From NCBI GenBank assembly GCA_000092065.1, contig CP000581.1: a stretch of DNA of 64,000 nt, one strand, 5' to 3'. Shown piece after piece: positions 26,025 to 55,089 of this stretch. Source of the DNA: Ostreococcus lucimarinus (Eukaryota). Each line of letters starts with the position of its first letter. The stretch's first letter is position 1. The translations under genes were made by a program, and so were the position numbers. The notes beneath the pieces were generated by a model. That model was not told where the DNA came from, did no database searches, and worked only from the letters and a program-made list of their open reading frames with translations.

Positions 26025-27680
26025 ATGGCGACTTCATCGCCTCGTACGCGGGTGATTGTTTGGTTTCGGAACGACTTGAGGTTGTTGGACAACGCCGTCG
26101 TCGCTCGAGCGGCGGCTCTGCGCGGACAATCGGACGCCGCTGAGGTCGTCCCGGTGTACGTGTTCGATGAGACGTTTTTTAAGACATCCAAGCGCGGTCT
26201 CGCGCGCTTCGGTGCAGGGCGTGGGAAGTTTACGATTGAGTGCGTGGACGACTTGAAGCGCGCGCTTCGCGGCGTCGGCAGCGACTTGTTGGTGCGTTGC
26301 GGCAAGACGGAGGATGTCATCACCGAGCTCACGCTCACGGGTGCGAACGACAAAACGATCGTGCTCACGCAAACAGAGGTGACGAGCGAGGAGACTGATA
26401 TGGATAGGGCGGTAGAGAGGGCGTCGAAGGAGCGAGCTCGAAGCGGCGGCGCGTCGGCGTCGATGGAGCGTCTGTGGGGGTCGACACTTTACCACGCCGA
26501 CGACCTCCCGTACGACTTCGCCGGAGGTCTACACGATTTACCAGATGTGTTCACGCCATTTCGGAACAAGGTAGAGTCAAAGTGCTCAGTGCGAGCGGTA
26601 GTGCCCGCGCCGACGGCGAACGCTCTGGGAAGCGTACCGGCGTCCGTGGCGGGGTTGGATTGGATGCCTGAACCGAAGGATTTGCCTTTCGCGTCGGCCG
26701 AAATCGCCCCGGCGTGCGAAAAATGGCTCAAAGATGGCGCAGACGAGCGCTCTGTGCTCGAATTCAAGGGTGGCGAATCCCAAGCCTTGGCTCGCGTCAA
26801 GTATTATTTGTGGGATAGCGATTTGCTCGCGACGTACTTTGAAACTCGCAACGGGATGCTGGGCGGCGACTACAGCACCAAGCTCGCACCGTGGCTCGCC
26901 TTAGGATGTGTGTCGCCGCGCTACGTCGTGAGCGAGATTCGACGCTACGAGAGCGCGCGCGTTGAGAACAAGAGCACGTATTGGGTAATATTTGAGTTGA
27001 TATGGAGAGACTTCTTCAAGTTCTTCGCGCTGAAACACGGGAACAAAATCTTCCATCTCGACGGTACGGCTAACAGGACGGCATCTTGGAAGAGTGATGA
27101 GAAGATCTTGAAGGCATGGAAGACAGGCACGACCGGATACCCACTCATCGACGCCAACATGCGCGAACTCGCGGCGACTGGTTTCATGTCGAATCGAGGG
27201 CGACAAAACGTCGCCTCGTGGCTCGCCCTCGACGCCGGCGTCGACTGGAGACACGGTGCCGATTGGTTCGAGCACCACTTATTGGATTACGACACCGCTT
27301 CTAACTGGGGGAACTGGTGCGCCGCCGCCGGTATGACGGGCGGTCGCATCAACCGCTTCAACATCGCCAAGCAAACCAAGGACTACGATCCCTCTGGCGA
27401 CTACGTCAAGCGTTGGATCCCGGAACTCCGCGAGATCCCCGCGGCGTACATCACCGAGCCCAACCAAGCCCCTCGCGAGCTTCGCGATCGAATCAGTCTC
27501 GATTACCCGAACAAGCTCAATCTCCCGAGGCGTGACTTCACGGAAATGGGGTCTCCGCCCGGGCCGAAGCGCGGCGGCGGTCGCGCCGCCGGCGGCGGTC
27601 GAGGCGGTCGAGGCGGGCGTTCGAAATCTCGCGGCCCCAAGGCCCACGCCGTGAGCGTGTACGACCACGTGTACGGTTAA
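26025..27680 (+). CDS. CRYD: Cryptochrome DASH (photolyase/cryptochrome family) with a C-terminal RGG/Gly-Arg-rich tail
   Basis: Photolyase N-domain 'VIVWFRNDLRLLDNAVV'; FAD-binding region 'MRELAATGFMSNRGRQNVASWLALDAGVDWRHGADWFEHHLLDYDTASNWGNWCAAAGM' is typical of CRY-DASH; tail 'GPKRGGGRAAGGGRGGRGGRSKSRG'. The first ATG is 26025 (the track start 25971 is TTG). Confidence 0.9.
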   Translation: MATSSPRTRVIVWFRNDLRLLDNAVVARAAALRGQSDAAEVVPVYVFDETFFKTSKRGLARFGAGRGKFTIECVDDLKRALRGVGSDLLVRCGKTEDVITELTLTGANDKTIVLTQTEVTSEETDMDRAVERASKERARSGGASASMERLWGSTLYHADDLPYDFAGGLHDLPDVFTPFRNKVESKCSVRAVVPAPTANALGSVPASVAGLDWMPEPKDLPFASAEIAPACEKWLKDGADERSVLEFKGGESQALARVKYYLWDSDLLATYFETRNGMLGGDYSTKLAPWLALGCVSPRYVVSEIRRYESARVENKSTYWVIFELIWRDFFKFFALKHGNKIFHLDGTANRTASWKSDEKILKAWKTGTTGYPLIDANMRELAATGFMSNRGRQNVASWLALDAGVDWRHGADWFEHHLLDYDTASNWGNWCAAAGMTGGRINRFNIAKQTKDYDPSGDYVKRWIPELREIPAAYITEPNQAPRELRDRISLDYPNKLNLPRRDFTEMGSPPGPKRGGGRAAGGGRGGRGGRSKSRGPKAHAVSVYDHVYG

Positions 27681-47200: not shown

Positions 47201-49237
47201 CTACTTTTTATACTCGTATTCGATGCGCAAACGCCGCTCCGTTCCCTCACCGACGGCGCTATGACTTAGCATGTACGTGTCCACCAACGCCTGTTGCATT
47301 TCGATGATGCGTCCCGATCGAGGCAATAGCTCGACAGGCTCGCGATGGGGAATGACGAGCTGCTCGACGGCCATGCGCACCTCTTCCAGGGCATCCGTTT
47401 CATCCGCGCTCGACGTAGTCGCTCGCTGTCTATTTTCTTGAGCACCACTTCCTCCGTTAAATCCATCACTTGCACCCGTTATGCCTAACATGGCTTGCAA
47501 AGCGCGAACGAGCTGCGCCGAGTTATCTGCCCGCACGGCGTAAATCGGCATACCTCGCGCTCTAGCCGCGTGTCGTAGCCACGTGGACGTCTTCACTTGC
47601 GATTTTGGCGCAATGACCACGCTCGCGTCTTCAAGAAGGTCAACCAAGCACACTCGATCACCCAAGTCCATGCTCTCCATGACGCGCTCCAGAGCGTCGC
47701 GACTAACTTTGAACGGAAACACTCGAAGAGCGTGCGGAGGGCACGTGTTGTCGTCTTCGTCGTCTTCGACGTCGTTCACGATGACGTCTTCGCCGCCGAG
47801 TTCGAAACGCGTGTTATCCACAAACTGTTGCGTCGTCGACGATGATCGACGTCGCGATGCGCTTGCGATTTCTAAAGCCGCGAGCTCAGAGCTCGATCGA
47901 GGCTGGACTTTTTGCGCCGTCGGTCGAGGCGCCGTCGCGTCGTACGCTAGGATTTCTCCAAGAACGCTCGCCTTTCGGCGACTTGTGTACTCTGCCTCCG
48001 TCGTCACCGTTCCATCTTCGTTCAGAACGCGTAGTTCGGTCATCGGCGACTGCCCCGCGAGTAAAGCGTCGACAGAAGCCGCGACGTCGGTGTGAACTCT
48101 CCAAGTGCCGATGTCGAGCATTTCCACGGCGATGGTAAACGTTGGTGGACCCGCCCTTTCGAGCACACTCTTCTGGACCCCTCGTCTACGTGCTTCGTCG
48201 TCGCCAAGAGTGACGCTCACAACACCACCTATCAAATCACATAACGCCGGGTTCTTCAAAACGTTCTCCAGCGTGTGTCCGTGCGCCGTACCAATCATCT
48301 GCACGCCTCGCTCGCTGATGGTTTGCGCTGCGTCCGCCTCTTGCTGCGTGCCGATTTCATCAACCACCACCGTCTGGGGCGTGTGATTTTCCACGGCTTC
48401 GATGAGCACGAGATGCTGTTCGCTCGCGTTCGGGACTTGCATTCGACGGGCACCACCTATACCGCGATGGGGAACGTCGCCGTCGCCCCCGATTTCATTT
48501 GACGTATCAACGATGACGACACGGCGAGAATGCTCATCCGACAGAATGCGAGAAATCTCTCGAATAGCCGTCGTTTTTCCTACACCAGGCCGTCCGAGAA
48601 GTAGTATCGAATTATTAAACGTCGTCACCGACGTTTCGGCGTCCAAAACGTCCCTGATAAGTTCGGCAGAACCCGAGATCGCGCGTCCGACTCGACACGT
48701 CGCGCCGATGACTTTGCCGTAACGATTCTTAATCGCGCTTATTCTGTGCAAAGTCCCGTTGATACCCGCGCGATTATCTCGTCCGACGTCTCCAACCTTT
48801 GTCATCATTCTATTCAAATCTTCGTACGTCACGAGCTCGTCCCCGATTGTGGCATCGCCGTCCGGAAACCGCGCCTTTGGTAGTCTTCCCAAGTCGAGCA
48901 CGACTTCGGTGAGCTCGAGCCTTCGCGCGTCTTCCGCCAACGCCCGTCGCACGCGCTCGGGCGCCGCGTCGAGCAATAGCGCAATTTCTTTTTCGCTCGT
49001 CACCGCCGCCAGCGTCGCTCGCTTTCGAGCGGCGAGCACGTCCTCCTTCGTCAACGCCAACGCGCCCGCGCTCGAGGACGTCGACGTCGCGTCGTCGGCG
49101 TCGTCGACGGCGTCGCGCCGCGTCGCGCGCCGAGGGCTGGCGCGGCGCCATCGCGCGCTTCGTCGTCCCTTAGTCCACCCGTCGCACCGCGCGGACGCGG
49201 ACGCGGACGTCGACGTCGTCGTCGGCGCCCCCCGCAT
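47201..49237 (-). CDS. ycf45: P-loop ATPase of the SpoIIIAA / Ycf45 (SPD1-like) family, organelle-targeted
   Basis: Walker A 'LLLGRPGVGKTTAIREISRIL', Walker B 'TVVVDEIGTQQEA', 'GVQMIGTAHGHTLENVLKNPALCDLIGGV'. The start is uncertain (ATG 49237 chosen; the track start 49522 would overlap the divergent transporter gene). Confidence 0.6.
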   Translation of the reverse strand: MRGAPTTTSTSASASARCDGWTKGRRSARWRRASPRRATRRDAVDDADDATSTSSSAGALALTKEDVLAARKRATLAAVTSEKEIALLLDAAPERVRRALAEDARRLELTEVVLDLGRLPKARFPDGDATIGDELVTYEDLNRMMTKVGDVGRDNRAGINGTLHRISAIKNRYGKVIGATCRVGRAISGSAELIRDVLDAETSVTTFNNSILLLGRPGVGKTTAIREISRILSDEHSRRVVIVDTSNEIGGDGDVPHRGIGGARRMQVPNASEQHLVLIEAVENHTPQTVVVDEIGTQQEADAAQTISERGVQMIGTAHGHTLENVLKNPALCDLIGGVVSVTLGDDEARRRGVQKSVLERAGPPTFTIAVEMLDIGTWRVHTDVAASVDALLAGQSPMTELRVLNEDGTVTTEAEYTSRRKASVLGEILAYDATAPRPTAQKVQPRSSSELAALEIASASRRRSSSTTQQFVDNTRFELGGEDVIVNDVEDDEDDNTCPPHALRVFPFKVSRDALERVMESMDLGDRVCLVDLLEDASVVIAPKSQVKTSTWLRHAARARGMPIYAVRADNSAQLVRALQAMLGITGASDGFNGGSGAQENRQRATTSSADETDALEEVRMAVEQLVIPHREPVELLPRSGRIIEMQQALVDTYMLSHSAVGEGTERRLRIEYEYKK

Positions 49238-49400
49238 CGCGCGTCGCCGTGTGTCGCGGCGTCCCGCGCGCGCTCGGACCGCCGGACCGCGGGCACGAGG
49301 CACGACTGACTCGCGCGCGTCACAACGCGCGCGCGCGACGAAGGCGACGCACCGACGCCTCGATCGCGTCGTCGGCGTCGTCGTCGAAGTCGCCGTCGCC

Positions 49401-50399
49401 ATGGGCTCGCCCGGCGGACGCAGCGCCGTCGTCATCGCGTGCTGGTACACCGCCAACGTCGGCGTGCTGCTGCTGAACAAGTACATCTTATCCGTGTATG
49501 GGTTCCGATTCCCGGTGTTCATGACGCTGTGTCACATGTGCATGTGTTCGGTGTTATCCGCGGCGGCGAGAGAGTTTAAGATCGTGCCGAAACAGTTCAT
49601 ACGGACGAGGCGACACTACGCCAAGGTGGCGGTGCTGGCGGTGACGTTTGCGCTGTCGGTGCTGGGAGGAAACGTGTCTCTGAGGTACATTCCAGTGAGC
49701 TTCAATCAAGCGTTGGGAGCGACGACACCATTCTTTACGGCTATTTTTGCGTATCTCATGCTGCGTAAGAAGGAAACGACGGCGACGTACATGACGCTCA
49801 TCCCCGTCGTCGGGGGCATAGCCGTGGCGACGTGGGGCGAGCCGAGTTTCAATTTTATTGGGTTCTGCGCGTGCCTCGTCGGGGTGTGCTGTCGAGCGTT
49901 AAAATCGGTGTTACAAGGATGGCTACTGACTCCAGCGGGGGAAAAGGAGGCGGAGAAAATGTCCAACTCGAACGAGAACAAGCTCGACAGTATGTCGCTT
50001 CTGTACTACATGTCGCCGGTGGCCATCGTGACGCTCGGAATTTGCACTTTCATCATGGAACCAGACGCAATATCGGCATTTTATGACGCGGCTGAGATGA
50101 ATCCGCCATTCATTGCCATTCTCTTAGGAAACTGTTTCGTGGCGTATCTCGTCAACCTGACGAATTTTCTCGTCACGGCGCACGTCGGCGCGCTTTCGCT
50201 TCAAGTTCTCGGCAACGCGAAGGGCGTCGTGTGCACTATCGTTAGCATCATGCTCTTCCGTAACCCGGTGACGTTTCGCAGCGTAGCTGGATACACGATT
50301 ACTATGGTCGGTGTTTGGCTTTACTCGTCGAGCAAGCGGCGTAGCGCCCGTTTGCAGGTCATCGAGAACGCCAACAAAAACTTAGCCTCAAAGGTGTAG
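49401..50399 (+). CDS. TPT/NST-family (drug-metabolite-transporter superfamily) sugar-phosphate or nucleotide-sugar transporter
   Basis: About 10 TM helices. 'CWYTANVGVLLLNKYIL', 'SFNQALGATTPFFTAIFAYLMLRKKET', 'ALSLQVLGNAKGVVCTIVSIMLFRNPVT' are hallmark TPT motifs. ATG at 49401. The last 33 codons lie inside the 398-bp inverted repeat. Confidence 0.8.
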   Translation: MGSPGGRSAVVIACWYTANVGVLLLNKYILSVYGFRFPVFMTLCHMCMCSVLSAAAREFKIVPKQFIRTRRHYAKVAVLAVTFALSVLGGNVSLRYIPVSFNQALGATTPFFTAIFAYLMLRKKETTATYMTLIPVVGGIAVATWGEPSFNFIGFCACLVGVCCRALKSVLQGWLLTPAGEKEAEKMSNSNENKLDSMSLLYYMSPVAIVTLGICTFIMEPDAISAFYDAAEMNPPFIAILLGNCFVAYLVNLTNFLVTAHVGALSLQVLGNAKGVVCTIVSIMLFRNPVTFRSVAGYTITMVGVWLYSSSKRRSARLQVIENANKNLASKV

Positions 50400-50773: not shown

Positions 50774-52528
50774 TTACACGCTTCTACCTTCTAGACGTTC
50801 TAGACGTGCGAGAACGCGCGCGGTGGACGAACGATTGAATGAGCTGTGTCGAAACTCGACTTCGTGTACGGCATGGTCGGTGAGCTCGCCTTCGTCGCCT
50901 GAGAAATCGAAATGCCCAATGACGAGCGATTCGTCGACACCGTCGTGTTTCGAAAAGCGTCCCAACACGATGGGATACCATATCGCGTCGTCCTCAGGCA
51001 TATCTGCATACGGTATTTCTTGTTGTTGAAACCACGTCGGAATGATGTCAGCTGACGCGCGCGCGTGAGTTGGAAACAACTTCGCGACGCTCGTGCCGTC
51101 GCGAAACGCGCACACAAATTCGTGCTCGACGGCGAGACCACCATCTGGCATCCAACCGCGAAATACGAAGCGCGCGGCTTCAAAAAGATCTTTCGGATCG
51201 TTCAAAGCATCGCACGCCAAGGGGTTGAGACCTGCTTCCTCTAGTGCGACGGACCGAGCGACGTCCAGTGGGACTAAATCCTTCTCGCTGTCGACTTCGG
51301 CGATGAAGCCGGTGTAGCGGCCGGCGAATTCGCCGCGCGTGTGCTTCCCCAGCAGGATGCGACCGTTGGCGACGTCCAAAACGAGAAGCTGAGCAAAACG
51401 CTTTGGCGGTCTCGTAAGCTCTGATTTCGGGTACACCTGCTTGTCGATCATATCGGCGAGGTTGTCGCTGGCGCGAGTGACGTTTTGTCCGACGTGATCG
51501 CCTTGTGTCCGCGGTTCGTACGCTGCATTCAACGGACGATGCGGAGTGACAAACTGTGGAAGTGGCGCAATGACGGCGTCGTCGTTGAGACCGTTGAATC
51601 TCACGAGCGATAATCGATCTCGTCCATCGCGAGATGGTCGAACGCGATGCGGCGTCGCGCGTACGACTCCGTTTGTAAAAATCTCGAAAGCGTCCGACAG
51701 AATGCACGTAAAAATGGCCTCATTCTCGTACGCCGGCGCCGAGCGCCACGCACCATCTCGCCCTTGGAGCTCTAATCCTTCGCACGTCTGATGAAGAAGT
51801 GTGAAGAATTCAAAGTCTGTGTGCTCCGAGATACCAACTATTTCCACTTTCGACGCGGCGATTCGTTCGCTGCGTCGCGTAGTCGAGTCCTCCTCGTTCG
51901 CTTCGTCATCCACTTTCATCGATGGATATCGCATTGCGCGCATGCTGCAGTGTGACGTATTGCCAAATTTCTTTACCCAGACGTCTTCGTCGTCGACGTG
52001 AAGCGCCTTCGCAAAGCATCGATACAGCGTCCTCGCCGCGCCATCGCACGCGCTGTAAAAACTGCAAAACGCACTTTGCATCGCGGGCACCTCCACCGGC
52101 CAATCCATAGGTCCAAGTCCTCGTGCCGCGTCGTCACCTCGTTCGTCTCGCACTTGCTCAATCTCACATGAGCTCAACTCTCGAACGACATCAAACGACT
52201 CGACGAGCGCGGCTGTTTTCTTTTGGTAAGAGTACTCTTCCAGCAGGGGCACGAAACCACCGCTCTCGTTCGCGTATTGCGAGTGTACGTACAGCGCCTT
52301 CACGTCTTCTGGCAGCGAGAAGAACGTTCGGGCGATGTCGTACGTGCGCGCGACGTCGAACGGCGCGACGCGCGACGTTGACGCCTCGCCGACGTCTCGA
52401 GCGTCGAGCTCGAAGTAACCGACACGCTCGCTCGACGTCAGCGCTTCACCCAGACGCGCGATTTCGACGTCGTCGCCGTCCGCGAGCTTGATGAGAGATA
52501 CTCGCGGCACGCTGTCGCTCGCGTGCAT
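50774..52528 (-). CDS. Fusion protein: 2-oxoglutarate/Fe(II)-dependent oxygenase (DIOX_N plus 2OG-FeII_Oxy) with a C-terminal Nudix hydrolase domain
   Basis: Oxygenase 'HTDFEFFTLLHQ...ATPHRV' (HxD...H facial triad plus basic 2OG-binding residue) with an N-terminal 'VSLIKLADGDDVEIARLGEALTSSERVGYFEL' DIOX_N-like region. The C-terminal ~150 aa carry a Nudix-box-like 'GRYTGFIAEVDSEKDLVPLDVARSVALEEAGL'. Start at ATG 52528; the track ORF extends to 52918 with a possible TM segment. Confidence 0.6.
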   Translation of the reverse strand: MHASDSVPRVSLIKLADGDDVEIARLGEALTSSERVGYFELDARDVGEASTSRVAPFDVARTYDIARTFFSLPEDVKALYVHSQYANESGGFVPLLEEYSYQKKTAALVESFDVVRELSSCEIEQVRDERGDDAARGLGPMDWPVEVPAMQSAFCSFYSACDGAARTLYRCFAKALHVDDEDVWVKKFGNTSHCSMRAMRYPSMKVDDEANEEDSTTRRSERIAASKVEIVGISEHTDFEFFTLLHQTCEGLELQGRDGAWRSAPAYENEAIFTCILSDAFEIFTNGVVRATPHRVRPSRDGRDRLSLVRFNGLNDDAVIAPLPQFVTPHRPLNAAYEPRTQGDHVGQNVTRASDNLADMIDKQVYPKSELTRPPKRFAQLLVLDVANGRILLGKHTRGEFAGRYTGFIAEVDSEKDLVPLDVARSVALEEAGLNPLACDALNDPKDLFEAARFVFRGWMPDGGLAVEHEFVCAFRDGTSVAKLFPTHARASADIIPTWFQQQEIPYADMPEDDAIWYPIVLGRFSKHDGVDESLVIGHFDFSGDEGELTDHAVHEVEFRHSSFNRSSTARVLARLERLEGRSV

Positions 52529-52916
52529 GACGCGACGAGCGATCGAACGAGGAGAGTCGTCGCTCACGTCGTCGTGTGACGCGCCGATGCACGAAAAACT
52601 CCTCACACGACGACGTGGGCGACGACGAATCGAACGACGACGAATCGCGAGCAAGATGACGAACGCGACGAGCGAGCGAGTTATTGGCGTCGCCCACGAC
52701 GTGCTGCCACAACGAGCGAAGAAGAAACCGCGACGAGACACAGCGATGACGGAGAGGACGGCTTCGACTTCTTCGGCGGCTGAGGCCGACCCGACGCCGC
52801 TGACGACGGACGATGAGGACGTTCGACGGGGATTCGAAAGCACGGACGCGCGCGTCGTGCGATACGCGCCAGAACACGATGACTTTCGAGCGCGCGAGGA
52901 CGAAGACGAAGACGAC

Positions 52917-53396
52917 ATGCGAGCGCGAAGAGGAGTGCAATACGCTTATAAAGACCACACGGCTGACATTCAGATACACGCCTGGGGATGCGATCTCGCT
53001 GAAGCCTACGCCTGGGCCGCGCTGGCGATGTTTGATTACATGACCCCGCTGGAGGACTGCGCTCGAGTGCGGACGACGCGATTCAAGGAAATACGCGCGA
53101 GCGGGCATGATTTAGACACCTTGCTCTTCGCATTTCTCGACGAGCTTTTGTTCACGTTTCACACAGAGATGCTCATATGCACGGCGGTGCAAGTTTGCGA
53201 GTTCAATCGAGACGAATGGAGTATTCGAGCAGTTGTGGGCGGGACGACGTTCGTCGACGGTGAGACGCGTCAAGGCACGGAGATTAAAGCCATCACATAC
53301 AGCGCGATGAAAATCATAGAACGAGGCGAGATTAGCAAAGACGATGAAAGCACCGGAGTACATCGCGCAGAGTTGTTCGTCATCGTTGACATTTAG
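52917..53396 (+). CDS. ZBTB8OS: Archease (tRNA-splicing ligase RtcB activator)
   Basis: 'YAYKDHTADIQIHAWGCDLAEAYAWAALAMFDYM', 'GHDLDTLLFAFLDELLF' and 'IKAITYSAMKI' match the archease family over full length. ATG at 52917 sits inside a CATG shared with the divergent ORF's track start. Confidence 0.85.
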   Translation: MRARRGVQYAYKDHTADIQIHAWGCDLAEAYAWAALAMFDYMTPLEDCARVRTTRFKEIRASGHDLDTLLFAFLDELLFTFHTEMLICTAVQVCEFNRDEWSIRAVVGGTTFVDGETRQGTEIKAITYSAMKIIERGEISKDDESTGVHRAELFVIVDI

Positions 53397-53439: not shown

Positions 53440-54834
53440 TCAACCGAGCCACTCTTCGATGGTCGCCTTCGGTTCGCTGAAGACTAAATCATCTTTAGTC
53501 AGCGGTAAAGACTCTTCCACGAGCTGCACAAGCTGTCTTCGCAGAGCCATCGTTAGCGCTGGCTGCCGAATCGAAGCGTTGAGCTCGACAAACTGCCCGA
53601 GCGAACGTTGCTTCAAGTTGCAGCTCCCCAACATCCCGAAATCCGCCACGGATTCGTCCTCGCTCTCCGCGTACAACACCTTGGCGTGCAGCATGTCGTC
53701 TATGAGAAATATTTTCAAGTTGTTCGAGTCACCGCTTCGCCGCGACGCGTTCACGTCGACCAGTCGTTTGAGCGCCTTGCGATTTGCGTCGTGATACACG
53801 TTCGGCGTTCGAGGGACGATGAGCGTGAGTGACGCGTCGCGTCGCCTCAACATTTCGGCGAGCATATCCGCTCCCATGGAATCAATGTAGGCCATCGCGA
53901 CGGAATATTTCGAGTACCTGGTGTCTCGAAGTAACTGCTTCATCGCTTGCTTCACCTCGAAACGCCCGGGAAAGGTCATATATCTAGGGAAAGTCCAGGC
54001 GATTGGAGACCAGCCCGTCGGTAGATTACTCGCAAAAACGATATCTGCGTCGTCGTTCGACGTAATTGTGCGCTCGAAGCTTCCCAATGCATACCGCATG
54101 GCGTCCACAGCCGCTCGACCATCCGCTCTAATGGCGAAATCGCGCCAATTTGTAAATCTATCGCCGACGTTGACGCCGCCGAATATAACCGACGGCAATC
54201 CGGTGCCGTGTTTTCGCTCGACAATCATGAACTTTGCGTGCGTCGCTTGCGAAACCGGTGTGAACGAAAAATGCTCCGCCCCGAGTTCTTCTTGTAGCGC
54301 TTCTAACTCTGCCGTTAACGTCGTCGTCCCTTCGCACCATCGCGTGAACTTGCTCACAACGGAACCGTCCACAGAGCACTTCACGCGCACGCCTCGCTTG
54401 ACCGCTCTCTTCATCGCCGCGACGACTTTGTCGCTCGATTTCCCGCGCTCGAACACGTACACGCTGAACTCTACGCTATCGCCCTTACTCGTCGTTCCAA
54501 GTTCACGACACAACGCCTCGACGACGTCGACATACGACGTGAGTAACCGCAGCGGTCTCGCCTTGACCACGCGGGCGCCTTCGTCGAACGACCCCGACGA
54601 CGAGACGTCGTCGTCGAACGAGCGCGATGCCGATCGCGAGCCTGCAAACGAACGACTTCCGACGCGATGGTTTTCTACCGTCGGCGGCGCGCGGCCGCGC
54701 TGCGACGTCTCCGCCGCGTGCGCTCGCACACGATGCCGCGTTGCCGCGTCGCCCCGTCTTCGCGACGCGCGCGTCGACGCGCGCGACCTCGGACGTGCGC
54801 GAGGCACGATACTCGCGGCGATGCGCGCCGACAT
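53440..54834 (-). CDS. cls: PLD-superfamily (two HKD motifs) bacterial-type cardiolipin synthase / phospholipase D-like protein, organelle-targeted
   Basis: HKD-1 'ATHAKFMIVERKHG...GGVNVGDRF'; HKD-2 'MLHAKVLYAESEDESVADFGMLGSCNLKQRS'. Length and spacing are like ClsA. Arg/Ser-rich presequence; ATG at 54834 (the track start 54918 is TTG). Confidence 0.8.
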   Translation of the reverse strand: MSARIAASIVPRARPRSRASTRASRRRGDAATRHRVRAHAAETSQRGRAPPTVENHRVGSRSFAGSRSASRSFDDDVSSSGSFDEGARVVKARPLRLLTSYVDVVEALCRELGTTSKGDSVEFSVYVFERGKSSDKVVAAMKRAVKRGVRVKCSVDGSVVSKFTRWCEGTTTLTAELEALQEELGAEHFSFTPVSQATHAKFMIVERKHGTGLPSVIFGGVNVGDRFTNWRDFAIRADGRAAVDAMRYALGSFERTITSNDDADIVFASNLPTGWSPIAWTFPRYMTFPGRFEVKQAMKQLLRDTRYSKYSVAMAYIDSMGADMLAEMLRRRDASLTLIVPRTPNVYHDANRKALKRLVDVNASRRSGDSNNLKIFLIDDMLHAKVLYAESEDESVADFGMLGSCNLKQRSLGQFVELNASIRQPALTMALRRQLVQLVEESLPLTKDDLVFSEPKATIEEWLG

Positions 54835-55089
54835 CGACGACGCGCACCGCTCGCGCCTCGCGCCTCGCTCTCGGCGGCACGAACGACGCGACGCGTTTTG
54901 GCGTAACCAACCAACCAAAGATACGCTCGCGCGCGCGGGAATTTCAGCGCTTTATTTTGTTGCAGAGGTGAGGTTGGGCGGTGCGGATATCATATCGTAC
55001 GGCGGTGACGATATCGTGCGATAAGAAATGCGAGATGACATCTACGTCTCATAGAATACAAAGAAAGAATCATGCGCTGCTAAAATCGA

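Follow-up and report, generated by a model that had tools for sequence, protein, structure and literature searches.

An oxygenase gene of Ostreococcus lucimarinus encodes a C-terminal MTH1-like domain without a Nudix box

Nudix domains that have lost their hydrolytic function are known to serve as binding modules. MutY (MUTYH) carries on its catalytic domain, a glycosylase, a C-terminal MutT-like domain that has no Nudix box and recognises 8-oxoG without hydrolysing it, reading the base within duplex DNA; to our knowledge, this domain does not contain the Asp-Asp motif found in MTH1. In TRPM2, the Nudix box of the NUDT9-H domain is mutated and no hydrolysis takes place (PMC6461439, PMC4974056), and in the human protein this domain is an ADP-ribose-binding module needed for gating (PMC6914804). 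Here we describe a gene in a 64,000-nucleotide stretch of Ostreococcus lucimarinus DNA (assembly GCA_000092065.1, contig CP000581.1; this whole stretch is called the window), which encodes an Fe(II)/2-oxoglutarate oxygenase domain followed by a domain that has the fold of MTH1 and no Nudix box. Both halves come from known superfamilies. The data suggest that the oxygenase is active and that the domain behind it, derived from MTH1, binds a purine-like ligand without hydrolysing it, a reading to which we assign a probability of roughly 60%.

Human MTH1/NUDT1 (PDB 3ZR0, 5GHI, 6QVO) has the same fold as the C-terminal domain, at 26-27% identity. In MTH1 the base is read by Asp119 and Asp120 together with Asn33; Gly36, Glu52 and Glu56 hold the metals and the triphosphate, Lys23 lies on the alpha-phosphate, Glu52 is the candidate catalytic base with Arg51 as its conserved partner, and Glu100 is also among the active-site residues (PMC12305053, PMC4801406). 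The ligand pocket comprises 11 residues, the others being Leu9, Phe27, Phe72, Met81, Val83, Trp117, Trp123 and Phe139 (PMC5054044). MTH1 and the Ostreococcus domain share Asp119-Asp120, Trp123, Phe72, Leu9 and Phe139 as well as the motif W-F-x3-IP-x2-M-x-DD-x2-W-x-P. Unlike MTH1, the Ostreococcus domain lacks the Nudix box, has its catalytic residues replaced and is fused behind an oxygenase; it also has several loop insertions, a C-terminal helix and a longer box-helix region. We do not class it as an MTH1 enzyme because the Nudix box, the feature that defines the family, was looked for and is absent. Like NUDT9-H of vertebrate TRPM2, it has the Nudix fold and forms the C-terminal part of a larger protein, but NUDT9-H belongs to the NUDT9 subfamily, binds ADP-ribose and has an ion channel as its partner, and the two are related in sequence only at the superfamily level.

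The oxygenase half is closest to a group consisting of PaIPNS (6JYV), Anc357 (9OVH), the ethylene-forming enzyme (EFE) and the plant Din11/homoarginine-6-hydroxylase (2-ODD-C23). These share with it the His-Asp-His triad and the 2-oxoglutarate-binding Arg, with fold matches at E 5e-20 and 2e-18; unlike the Ostreococcus protein they are single-domain proteins, and the identity is only 21-25%. For PaIPNS and Anc357, too, no primary substrate is known (PMC12329707). The thymine-7-hydroxylase T7H of N. crassa (5C3P-5C3S) is likewise of the IPNS type and is matched in fold at about 1e-16 and weakly in sequence at 4e-4. T7H acts on a free nucleobase, so that oxidation of nucleobases is within the reach of this class of oxygenases. 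Sequence similarity is low and T7H has no accessory base-binding domain; the resemblance points to a possibility and does not establish membership.

The gene and its two domains are located as follows:

50774..52528, minus strand: coding sequence of the fusion protein, 584 amino acids, with the stop codon at 50774-50776 and the start at Met131 of a 714-amino-acid maximal open reading frame
51443..52528, minus strand: Fe(II)/2-oxoglutarate oxygenase domain of the IPNS/EFE type, amino acids 1-362, defined by Pfam, phmmer and Foldseek
50819..51409, minus strand: MTH1/NUDT1-type Nudix-fold domain without a Nudix box, amino acids 374-570

The first-pass annotation of this gene had proposed a Nudix hydrolase domain at the C-terminus. 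The Pfam model for Nudix (PF00293) found no match at E<=10, neither in the whole protein nor in the isolated C-terminal 223 amino acids. A phmmer search of the C-terminal part against all PDB sequences nevertheless returned only MTH1/NUDT1 chains (6e-10 to 3e-8), and a profile built from 20 orthologous domains found MTH1 chains at 7e-13 to 2e-9, the sole match outside MTH1 having an E value of 0.57. The AlphaFold2 model of the isolated domain reached a mean predicted local distance difference test score (pLDDT) of 89.9 and a predicted template modelling score (pTM) of 0.87. When it was compared with the PDB using Foldseek, the top 50 matches were all MTH1, with E values down to 2e-14 at about 26% identity and target-normalised TM scores of 0.78-0.88 (0.85 for the MTH1 chain at E 2e-14). 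Stand-alone relatives of the domain reach PF00293 weakly, with 14.7-34.1 bits, which closes the chain of homology to Nudix. The MTH1-type fold is therefore virtually certain, and the proposed domain is a Nudix fold of the MTH1/NUDT1 branch; the failure of the PF00293 model refutes an active canonical Nudix hydrolase, not a Nudix ancestry.

Three short stretches of the domain can be placed on the active site and pocket of MTH1:

51227..51310, minus strand: remnant of the Nudix-box helix, GFIAEVDSEKDLVPLDVARSVALEEAGL, amino acids 407-434, with Gly37 replaced by Ala, Arg51 by Ser and Glu52 by Val relative to MTH1
51116..51127, minus strand: invariant EHEF strand, amino acids 468-471, corresponding to MTH1 Val83-His84-Val85-Phe86
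50972..51001, minus strand: MPEDDAIWYP, amino acids 510-519, corresponding to MTH1 Met116-Trp117-Pro118-Asp119-Asp120...Trp123

The hydrolytic machinery of MTH1 has been lost. The canonical Nudix box tested was GX5EX7REUXEEXGU; the helix remnant is 5 residues longer than this box, and the regular expressions G.{5}E.{7}R, G.{5}[ED].{7}R and RE..EE found no match in the fusion protein. An element G-x5-E-x7-RSVALEEAGL had been reported here; its second part, RSVALEEAGL, is indeed present at amino acid 425, but the preceding pattern G-x5-E-x7-R is not literally there. Only the tail of the box, EE.G[LIVM], is matched (EEAGL, corresponding to MTH1 Glu55, Glu56 and Gly58). The Ostreococcus protein has His in place of MTH1 Lys23, Ile in place of Gly36, Ala in place of Gly37, Ser in place of Arg51, Val in place of Glu52 and Asp in place of Glu100. 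We scored these positions in 18 fusion sequences, while general conservation was read from an alignment of 32 sequences. Lys23 is replaced by His and Gly36 by Ile in 18/18, the Glu52 position is never Glu, no orthologue has Arg-Glu at positions 51/52, and Glu100 is kept in a single sequence (1/18), with Asp at this position in seven. Positions Glu55/Glu56 are variable in the orthologues, where TN, SN, EN, LG, RR, EM, AL, SS, GR and AN occur, and judging from this alignment the EE of the Ostreococcus protein appears to be a lineage-specific coincidence. The C-terminal domain is thus very probably not a canonical Nudix hydrolase.

The base-reading part of the pocket shows a different pattern. 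None of the 18 fusion sequences departs from MTH1 at Asp119, Asp120 or Trp123, and in the 32-sequence alignment M510, P511, D513, D514, W517 and Y518 are invariant. Leu9, Phe72 and Phe139 are also kept in the Ostreococcus protein according to the phmmer alignment with MTH1, and they are invariant or at least 90% conserved among the orthologues. Altogether, 6/11 MTH1 pocket residues are retained, and four of the other five are replaced uniformly or nearly so: Asn33 by Thr, Val83 by Glu and Trp117 by Pro (each 18/18) and Phe27 by Glu (17/18), while Met81 has become Ala or Val. The EHEF strand, which places a Glu at the MTH1 pocket residue Val83, is fixed at positions 83-86, with a further Glu at position 85 in 18/18 sequences. 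This is the pattern expected of a remodelled functional ligand pocket and not of a decaying domain. MTH1 Val83 adjoins the ribose 2' position and is held responsible for disfavouring ribonucleotides (PMC5054044). The invariant exchange of Val83 for Glu would be compatible with recognition of ribose hydroxyls. Since the catalytic residues are lost and the base pocket is kept, the domain most likely holds a small molecule without hydrolysing it.

The features of the oxygenase half are the following:

52172..52423, minus strand: DIOX_N-like N-terminal segment, amino acids 36-119, with a PF14226 match below the cut-off
51596..51841, minus strand: 2OG-FeII_Oxy core, amino acids 230-311, PF03171
51821-51823, 51815-51817 and 51647-51649, minus strand: codons of the facial triad His236, Asp238 and His294
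51614-51616, minus strand: codon of the invariant 2-oxoglutarate-binding Arg305

The dioxygenase signatures described in the first-pass annotation, HTDFEFFTLL (from amino acid 236) and HRV (from amino acid 294), are present, and the IPNS-type fold is matched. At the level of the Pfam models the proposal held for the core, since PF03171 scores 41.6 bits against a gathering cut-off of 23 (E 1.6e-10); PF14226 stays below its cut-off in the Ostreococcus protein (21.1 against 27.3 bits), with matches above the threshold in several homologues. H236, D238, H294 and R305 are invariant in the 32-sequence alignment and the triad region aligns to 9ovh; in the RxS motif, position 307 is mostly Ser, with Ala in a clade with high GC content. 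The best phmmer matches in the PDB were 9ovh (the ancestral ethylene-forming enzyme Anc357) at 4e-16 and 6jyv (a Pseudomonas 'IPNS') at 4e-13, followed by plant DOXC enzymes; thymine dioxygenase was matched weakly (4e-4). The AlphaFold2 model of the full-length protein (pLDDT 82.6, pTM 0.85) was matched by Foldseek to 6jyv, 9ovh, 3oox, T7H, IPNS and GA oxidases at E 5e-20 to 1e-15, with target TM scores of 0.62-0.83 for the oxygenase-type matches; no PDB chain covering both domains was found, and an NCBIfam scan of the whole protein matched no family. From its conserved residues, the oxygenase domain looks catalytically competent; its substrate cannot be read from homology.

An acidic/basic insertion, MKVDDEANEEDSTTRRSERIAASK, is located in the oxygenase domain (51845..51916, minus strand; amino acids 205-228). 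It was modelled with a pLDDT below 50 and varies greatly in length among the orthologues, with about 60 extra residues in the high-GC clade, and is probably a disordered surface loop.

Both domains are found together well beyond Ostreococcus lucimarinus. About 40 database proteins of 500-770 amino acids cover both halves at 32-89% identity. The O. tauri protein (XP_003074709.1 / Q01FD5) falls into the same cluster and is annotated only as 'Oxoglutarate/iron-dependent dioxygenase', and the precomputed annotations of the fusion homologues report a Nudix domain in none of them. The contigs bearing the fusion have GC contents of 45%, 57-61% and 68%, showing that several genus-level lineages are involved. 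The junction is conserved as well: the terminal helix of the oxygenase domain (amino acids 344-362) leads into the second domain and is followed by PPKRFAQLL, with P375 and Q380 invariant. Identity to the orthologues falls in parallel in the two halves, from 90/90% to about 43/39% for the oxygenase and the MTH1-like half, and the dN/dS values against a close relative (locus L091) are 0.18 and 0.22, respectively. Both halves are under purifying selection. The pTM of the full-length model suggests a defined two-domain unit.

The combination of domains in one open reading frame had been noted before, with the proviso that two genes, or a stop between the domains, would speak against it. At least 30 continuous homologous open reading frames contradict this, and orthologues including that of O. 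tauri keep the fusion. A gene-model artefact, in which the single frame would result from two neighbouring genes or from an overlooked intron or stop, found nothing in its favour and is extremely improbable, since the 1752-nucleotide coding sequence contains no stop codon, the junction is conserved, and the fusion recurs in independent assemblies from different lineages. We regard the fusion as real with near certainty.

To place the C-terminal domain among its relatives, its profile was searched against 1.84 billion representative proteins, resulting in 671 hits at E<=1e-3, and the 142 best representatives outside the query alignment (clusters at 50% identity) were scored. We defined a box-less signature as [HW]-x9-T-G-x-[IL] ... 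E-[HY]-E-[FY] ... W-M-P-x-D-D-x2-W-Y-P in the absence of a Nudix box, to which the Ostreococcus protein conforms with H396, T406, I409, EHEF (468-471) and MPEDDAIWYP (510-519). This signature is found in 94/142 representatives, with which the Ostreococcus protein groups and all of which keep Pro at position 117 and the Asp-Asp pair (P..DD in 94/94); RE.xEE is present in 1/94, Glu100 in 9/94 and Lys23 in 0/94. Another 37 of the 142 are canonical MTH1-like proteins, with RE.xEE in 36/37, Glu100 in 37/37, and Lys23 and Asn33 each in 35/35. Most box-less representatives (84/94) are stand-alone proteins of less than 300 amino acids, in which position 84 varies (39 His, 14 Tyr, others) whereas Glu83 and the Asp-Asp pair persist. 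Some box-less proteins derive from marine protist transcriptomes (MMETSP). Some stand-alone relatives are labelled '8-oxo-dGTP diphosphatase' or 'ADP-ribose pyrophosphatase' in the databases, labels that are probably wrong. A second protein search, with an alignment of stand-alone sequences, gave 25 hits without taxonomy or useful names. In prokaryotes, one genome per species was searched with a profile from five closer stand-alone sequences, and 80 loci with 8 kb flanks were collected. The domain profile is matched in 75 of them; only two, from marine Myxococcota metagenome-assembled genomes, are of the box-less type, the rest being canonical. Viral contigs contained no relative of the C-terminal domain. 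A literature search found no paper on a fusion of a 2-oxoglutarate oxygenase with Nudix or on the box-less MTH1-like group; a review on guanidine treats Nudix enzymes and dioxygenases only separately (PMC12623156).

Three members of the wider family have features of their own. A bacterial stand-alone box-less gene (P0170, from metagenome loci L006-L009) lies between two class-III aminotransferase genes, beyond which an aldehyde dehydrogenase, an APH-type kinase and an acyl-CoA dehydrogenase are encoded; this neighbourhood resembles amine catabolism and may be a hint to the ligand class. Its only close relatives among the prokaryotic species genomes are the two Myxococcota sequences (L011, L012). 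In P0172 (300 amino acids) the box-less domain follows a region weakly similar to cytidine/dCMP deaminases (PF00383, 22.3 bits against a cut-off of 25), so that this protein may represent a second fusion of the box-less domain to a nucleobase-handling fold. P0260 (460 amino acids) contains two tandem MTH1-like domains, each with a RELLEETNI helix, in which Asn replaces the box residue Gly58.

We propose the following arrangement. The single gene would give rise to a cytosolic two-domain protein, in which the N-terminal domain, an Fe(II)/2-oxoglutarate oxygenase of the IPNS/EFE/DOXC type, would be competent for catalysis. Its C-terminal partner would descend from an MTH1/NUDT1-type Nudix hydrolase that lost its apparatus for binding metal and phosphate and had its ligand pocket remodelled. 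On the most economical view, this module would bind a purine-like heterocycle or a (ribo)nucleoside-type ligand without hydrolysis, and the bound ligand would be either the substrate, captured or positioned for the oxygenase, or an effector that is sensed to control it. That a ligand is bound, that the domains are coupled and to which chemical class the ligand belongs are inferences; a ligand-binding role of the C-terminal domain, coupled to the oxygenase, seems somewhat more probable than the contrary.

Several points weigh against this proposal. Enzymes do occur among the Nudix-fold proteins with atypical motifs, and a new catalytic or metal site could be made up of the invariant Glu-His-Glu and the Asp-Asp cluster. 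The pocket is acidic (Glu27, Glu83, Glu85, Asp119, Asp120 in MTH1 numbering) and could also suit a cation, an amine or a guanidinium/guanidino ligand in place of a nucleobase. In the prokaryotic loci, an oxygenase of this family was found within 8 kb of the domain in 0/80 cases, giving no neighbourhood support for coupling; as a whole, the prokaryotic gene-neighbourhood data support functional coupling neither way. It is possible that the oxygenase is an EFE-like arginine/homoarginine hydroxylase and that the acidic pocket binds the guanidinium group. We have set this aside; the nearest structural relatives, PaIPNS and Anc357, do not hydroxylate arginine (PMC12329707).

The first-pass annotation had suggested coupled oxidation and pyrophosphate hydrolysis on a nucleotide-linked substrate. 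Such an enzyme would be bifunctional, its oxygenase and an active Nudix pyrophosphohydrolase working one after the other. Fold and base pocket do resemble those of MTH1, the box helix still ends in EE.GL in the Ostreococcus protein and a few relatives, and the Asp found at the Glu100 position in 7/18 sequences could be counted on the same side. However, Arg51-Glu52, Lys23 and Gly36-Gly37 are replaced in every fusion orthologue, Glu55/Glu56 are not conserved, PF00293 is not matched, and RE.xEE separates the box-less from the canonical representatives almost completely, so that this suggestion did not hold up and we consider such an enzyme improbable. The strict invariance of EHEF and of the Asp-Asp pair under purifying selection, as expected of a catalytic site, would also agree with an enzyme of a new kind, in which the catalytic or metal site has moved to Glu468-His469-Glu470 and Asp513-Asp514; it might be a hydrolase or isomerase acting on the product of the oxygenase. 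IDI and GDP-mannose mannosyl hydrolase are examples of non-canonical enzymes in the Nudix superfamily. Residues of a beta-strand alternate between its two sides, though, so Glu-His-Glu cannot all face one site, and the variability of His84 in stand-alone box-less relatives that keep Glu83 and the Asp-Asp pair fits ligand contacts better than a metal triad. We therefore think this enzyme unlikely.

Pseudoenzyme domains are often scaffolds, and the pTM of the full-length model would suggest that the C-terminal domain packs tightly on the oxygenase. A structural, dimerisation or protein-docking module that binds no small molecule nevertheless has a low probability, because the best-conserved residues are those of the MTH1 pocket (the Asp-Asp pair, W123, F72, L9 and F139) instead of being scattered over the surface, and because about 84 stand-alone clusters of less than 300 amino acids, which have no oxygenase to dock on, share the pocket signature. 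Within the proposal of a non-hydrolytic binding module, a more specific version is that the dead MTH1 domain captures damaged or modified purines through its Asp-Asp pocket and hands them to the oxygenase for oxidative repair or conversion. This version is quite unlikely as it stands. If it were true, the captured ligands would be purine bases, nucleosides or nucleotides, such as methylated or oxidised purines or N6-substituted adenines. Whereas MTH1 would hydrolyse and so destroy the nucleotide, the base would here be repaired or converted by an oxidation such as hydroxylation or oxidative demethylation. The protein would then define a new enzyme class that reuses a sanitising hydrolase as its substrate-recognition module, and the stand-alone box-less proteins would be binders of purine derivatives and not 8-oxo-dGTP diphosphatases. 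A modified purine as substrate would mean a new route of nucleobase or nucleotide metabolism.

In some of the most abundant marine picophytoplankton, the gene would thus offer a clean natural case of a hydrolase that has become a binding module and is joined to an unrelated enzyme, comparable to NUDT9-H of TRPM2 and the C-terminal domain of MutY. It also exposes a large MTH1-derived group without a Nudix box, whose members are missed or probably mislabelled by annotation pipelines. The ligand of the box-less pocket would be a strong candidate for the substrate or effector of the orphan PaIPNS/EFE-like oxygenase, offering a handle on two orphan families.

Two positions come into question for the start of the fusion gene. 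The open frame on the minus strand runs from 52918 to 50774 without interruption (714 codons), with in-frame ATGs at 52918 (714 amino acids) and 52528 (584 amino acids). Several lines of evidence support the start at Met131 (ATG at 52528) and not the one at 52918, namely the N-termini of the homologues, the GC content by codon position, the comparison with L091 and the overlap with the neighbouring archease gene. The homologues start a few residues before a conserved P-R-(I/V)-S-L motif, matching Met131, and cluster members of exactly 584 amino acids were found on hundreds of contigs. GC by codon position is 0.55/0.68/0.65 in the 130-codon extension, which is non-coding-like, and 0.65/0.43/0.63 in the core, which is coding-like. 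In L091 (87% protein identity) the ATG equivalent to 52918 is missing, and a 7-nucleotide indel lies between its position and Met131. The upstream ATG shares a CATG with the in-frame ATG of the divergent archease gene at 52917, as had been pointed out before; with a complete Archease domain after 52917, the long start would leave the fusion gene without promoter space. The transmembrane helix that had been considered for the longer N-terminus could not be confirmed, the hydrophobic run LVAFVILLAI comprising only about 10 residues in a probably untranslated stretch. The region upstream of the fusion gene is therefore divided as follows:

52529..52916, between the fusion and archease genes: probable divergent promoter and 5' untranslated region; open in the frame of the fusion gene, probably not translated
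52917..53396, plus strand: archease gene in its minimal extent (PF01951, E 1.2e-35), divergent neighbour of the fusion gene

ARAGORN called a tRNA-Ser (cga) at 52344..52431 on the minus strand, inside the oxygenase coding sequence. No Rfam tRNA match was found there at E<=10, and in this GC-rich coding DNA the call is almost certainly false.

The Pfam domain of the archease is complete and begins 9 residues after the ATG at 52917. The gene may start further upstream, as there are in-frame ATGs at 52656 and 52746; gene callers give the archeases of relatives 244-248 amino acids, implying a longer, poorly conserved N-terminus. In two Ostreococcus-like loci, L001 and L092, the archease adjoins the fusion gene, and in the more distant L003 and L005 the two genes are no more than about 5 kb apart; we read this as conserved microsynteny and not as a functional link. 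A PLD-like protein (PLDc_2 in two stretches, E 1.1e-16) is encoded at 53440..54918 on the minus strand, and since such a gene is also found beside the archease in the O. tauri-like contig L001, local synteny is conserved. On the other side of the fusion gene, a 773-amino-acid open reading frame at 47201..49522 (minus strand) contains a SpoIIIAA-like/AAA domain (PF19568) and a C-terminal PF25516 'PTPase' domain. Downstream of this open reading frame, a convergent transporter gene of the TPT family (PF03151, E 1e-46) is located at 48759..50399 on the plus strand. The maximal open reading frames of these two genes overlap on opposite strands over 48759-49522, so that at least one of the starts is over-extended. 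Elsewhere in the window, ARAGORN predicted a 94-nucleotide tRNA-Ala (cgc) at 27547..27640 on the plus strand, for which Rfam gave no report at the gathering threshold; it could be an intron-containing tRNA or a false positive.

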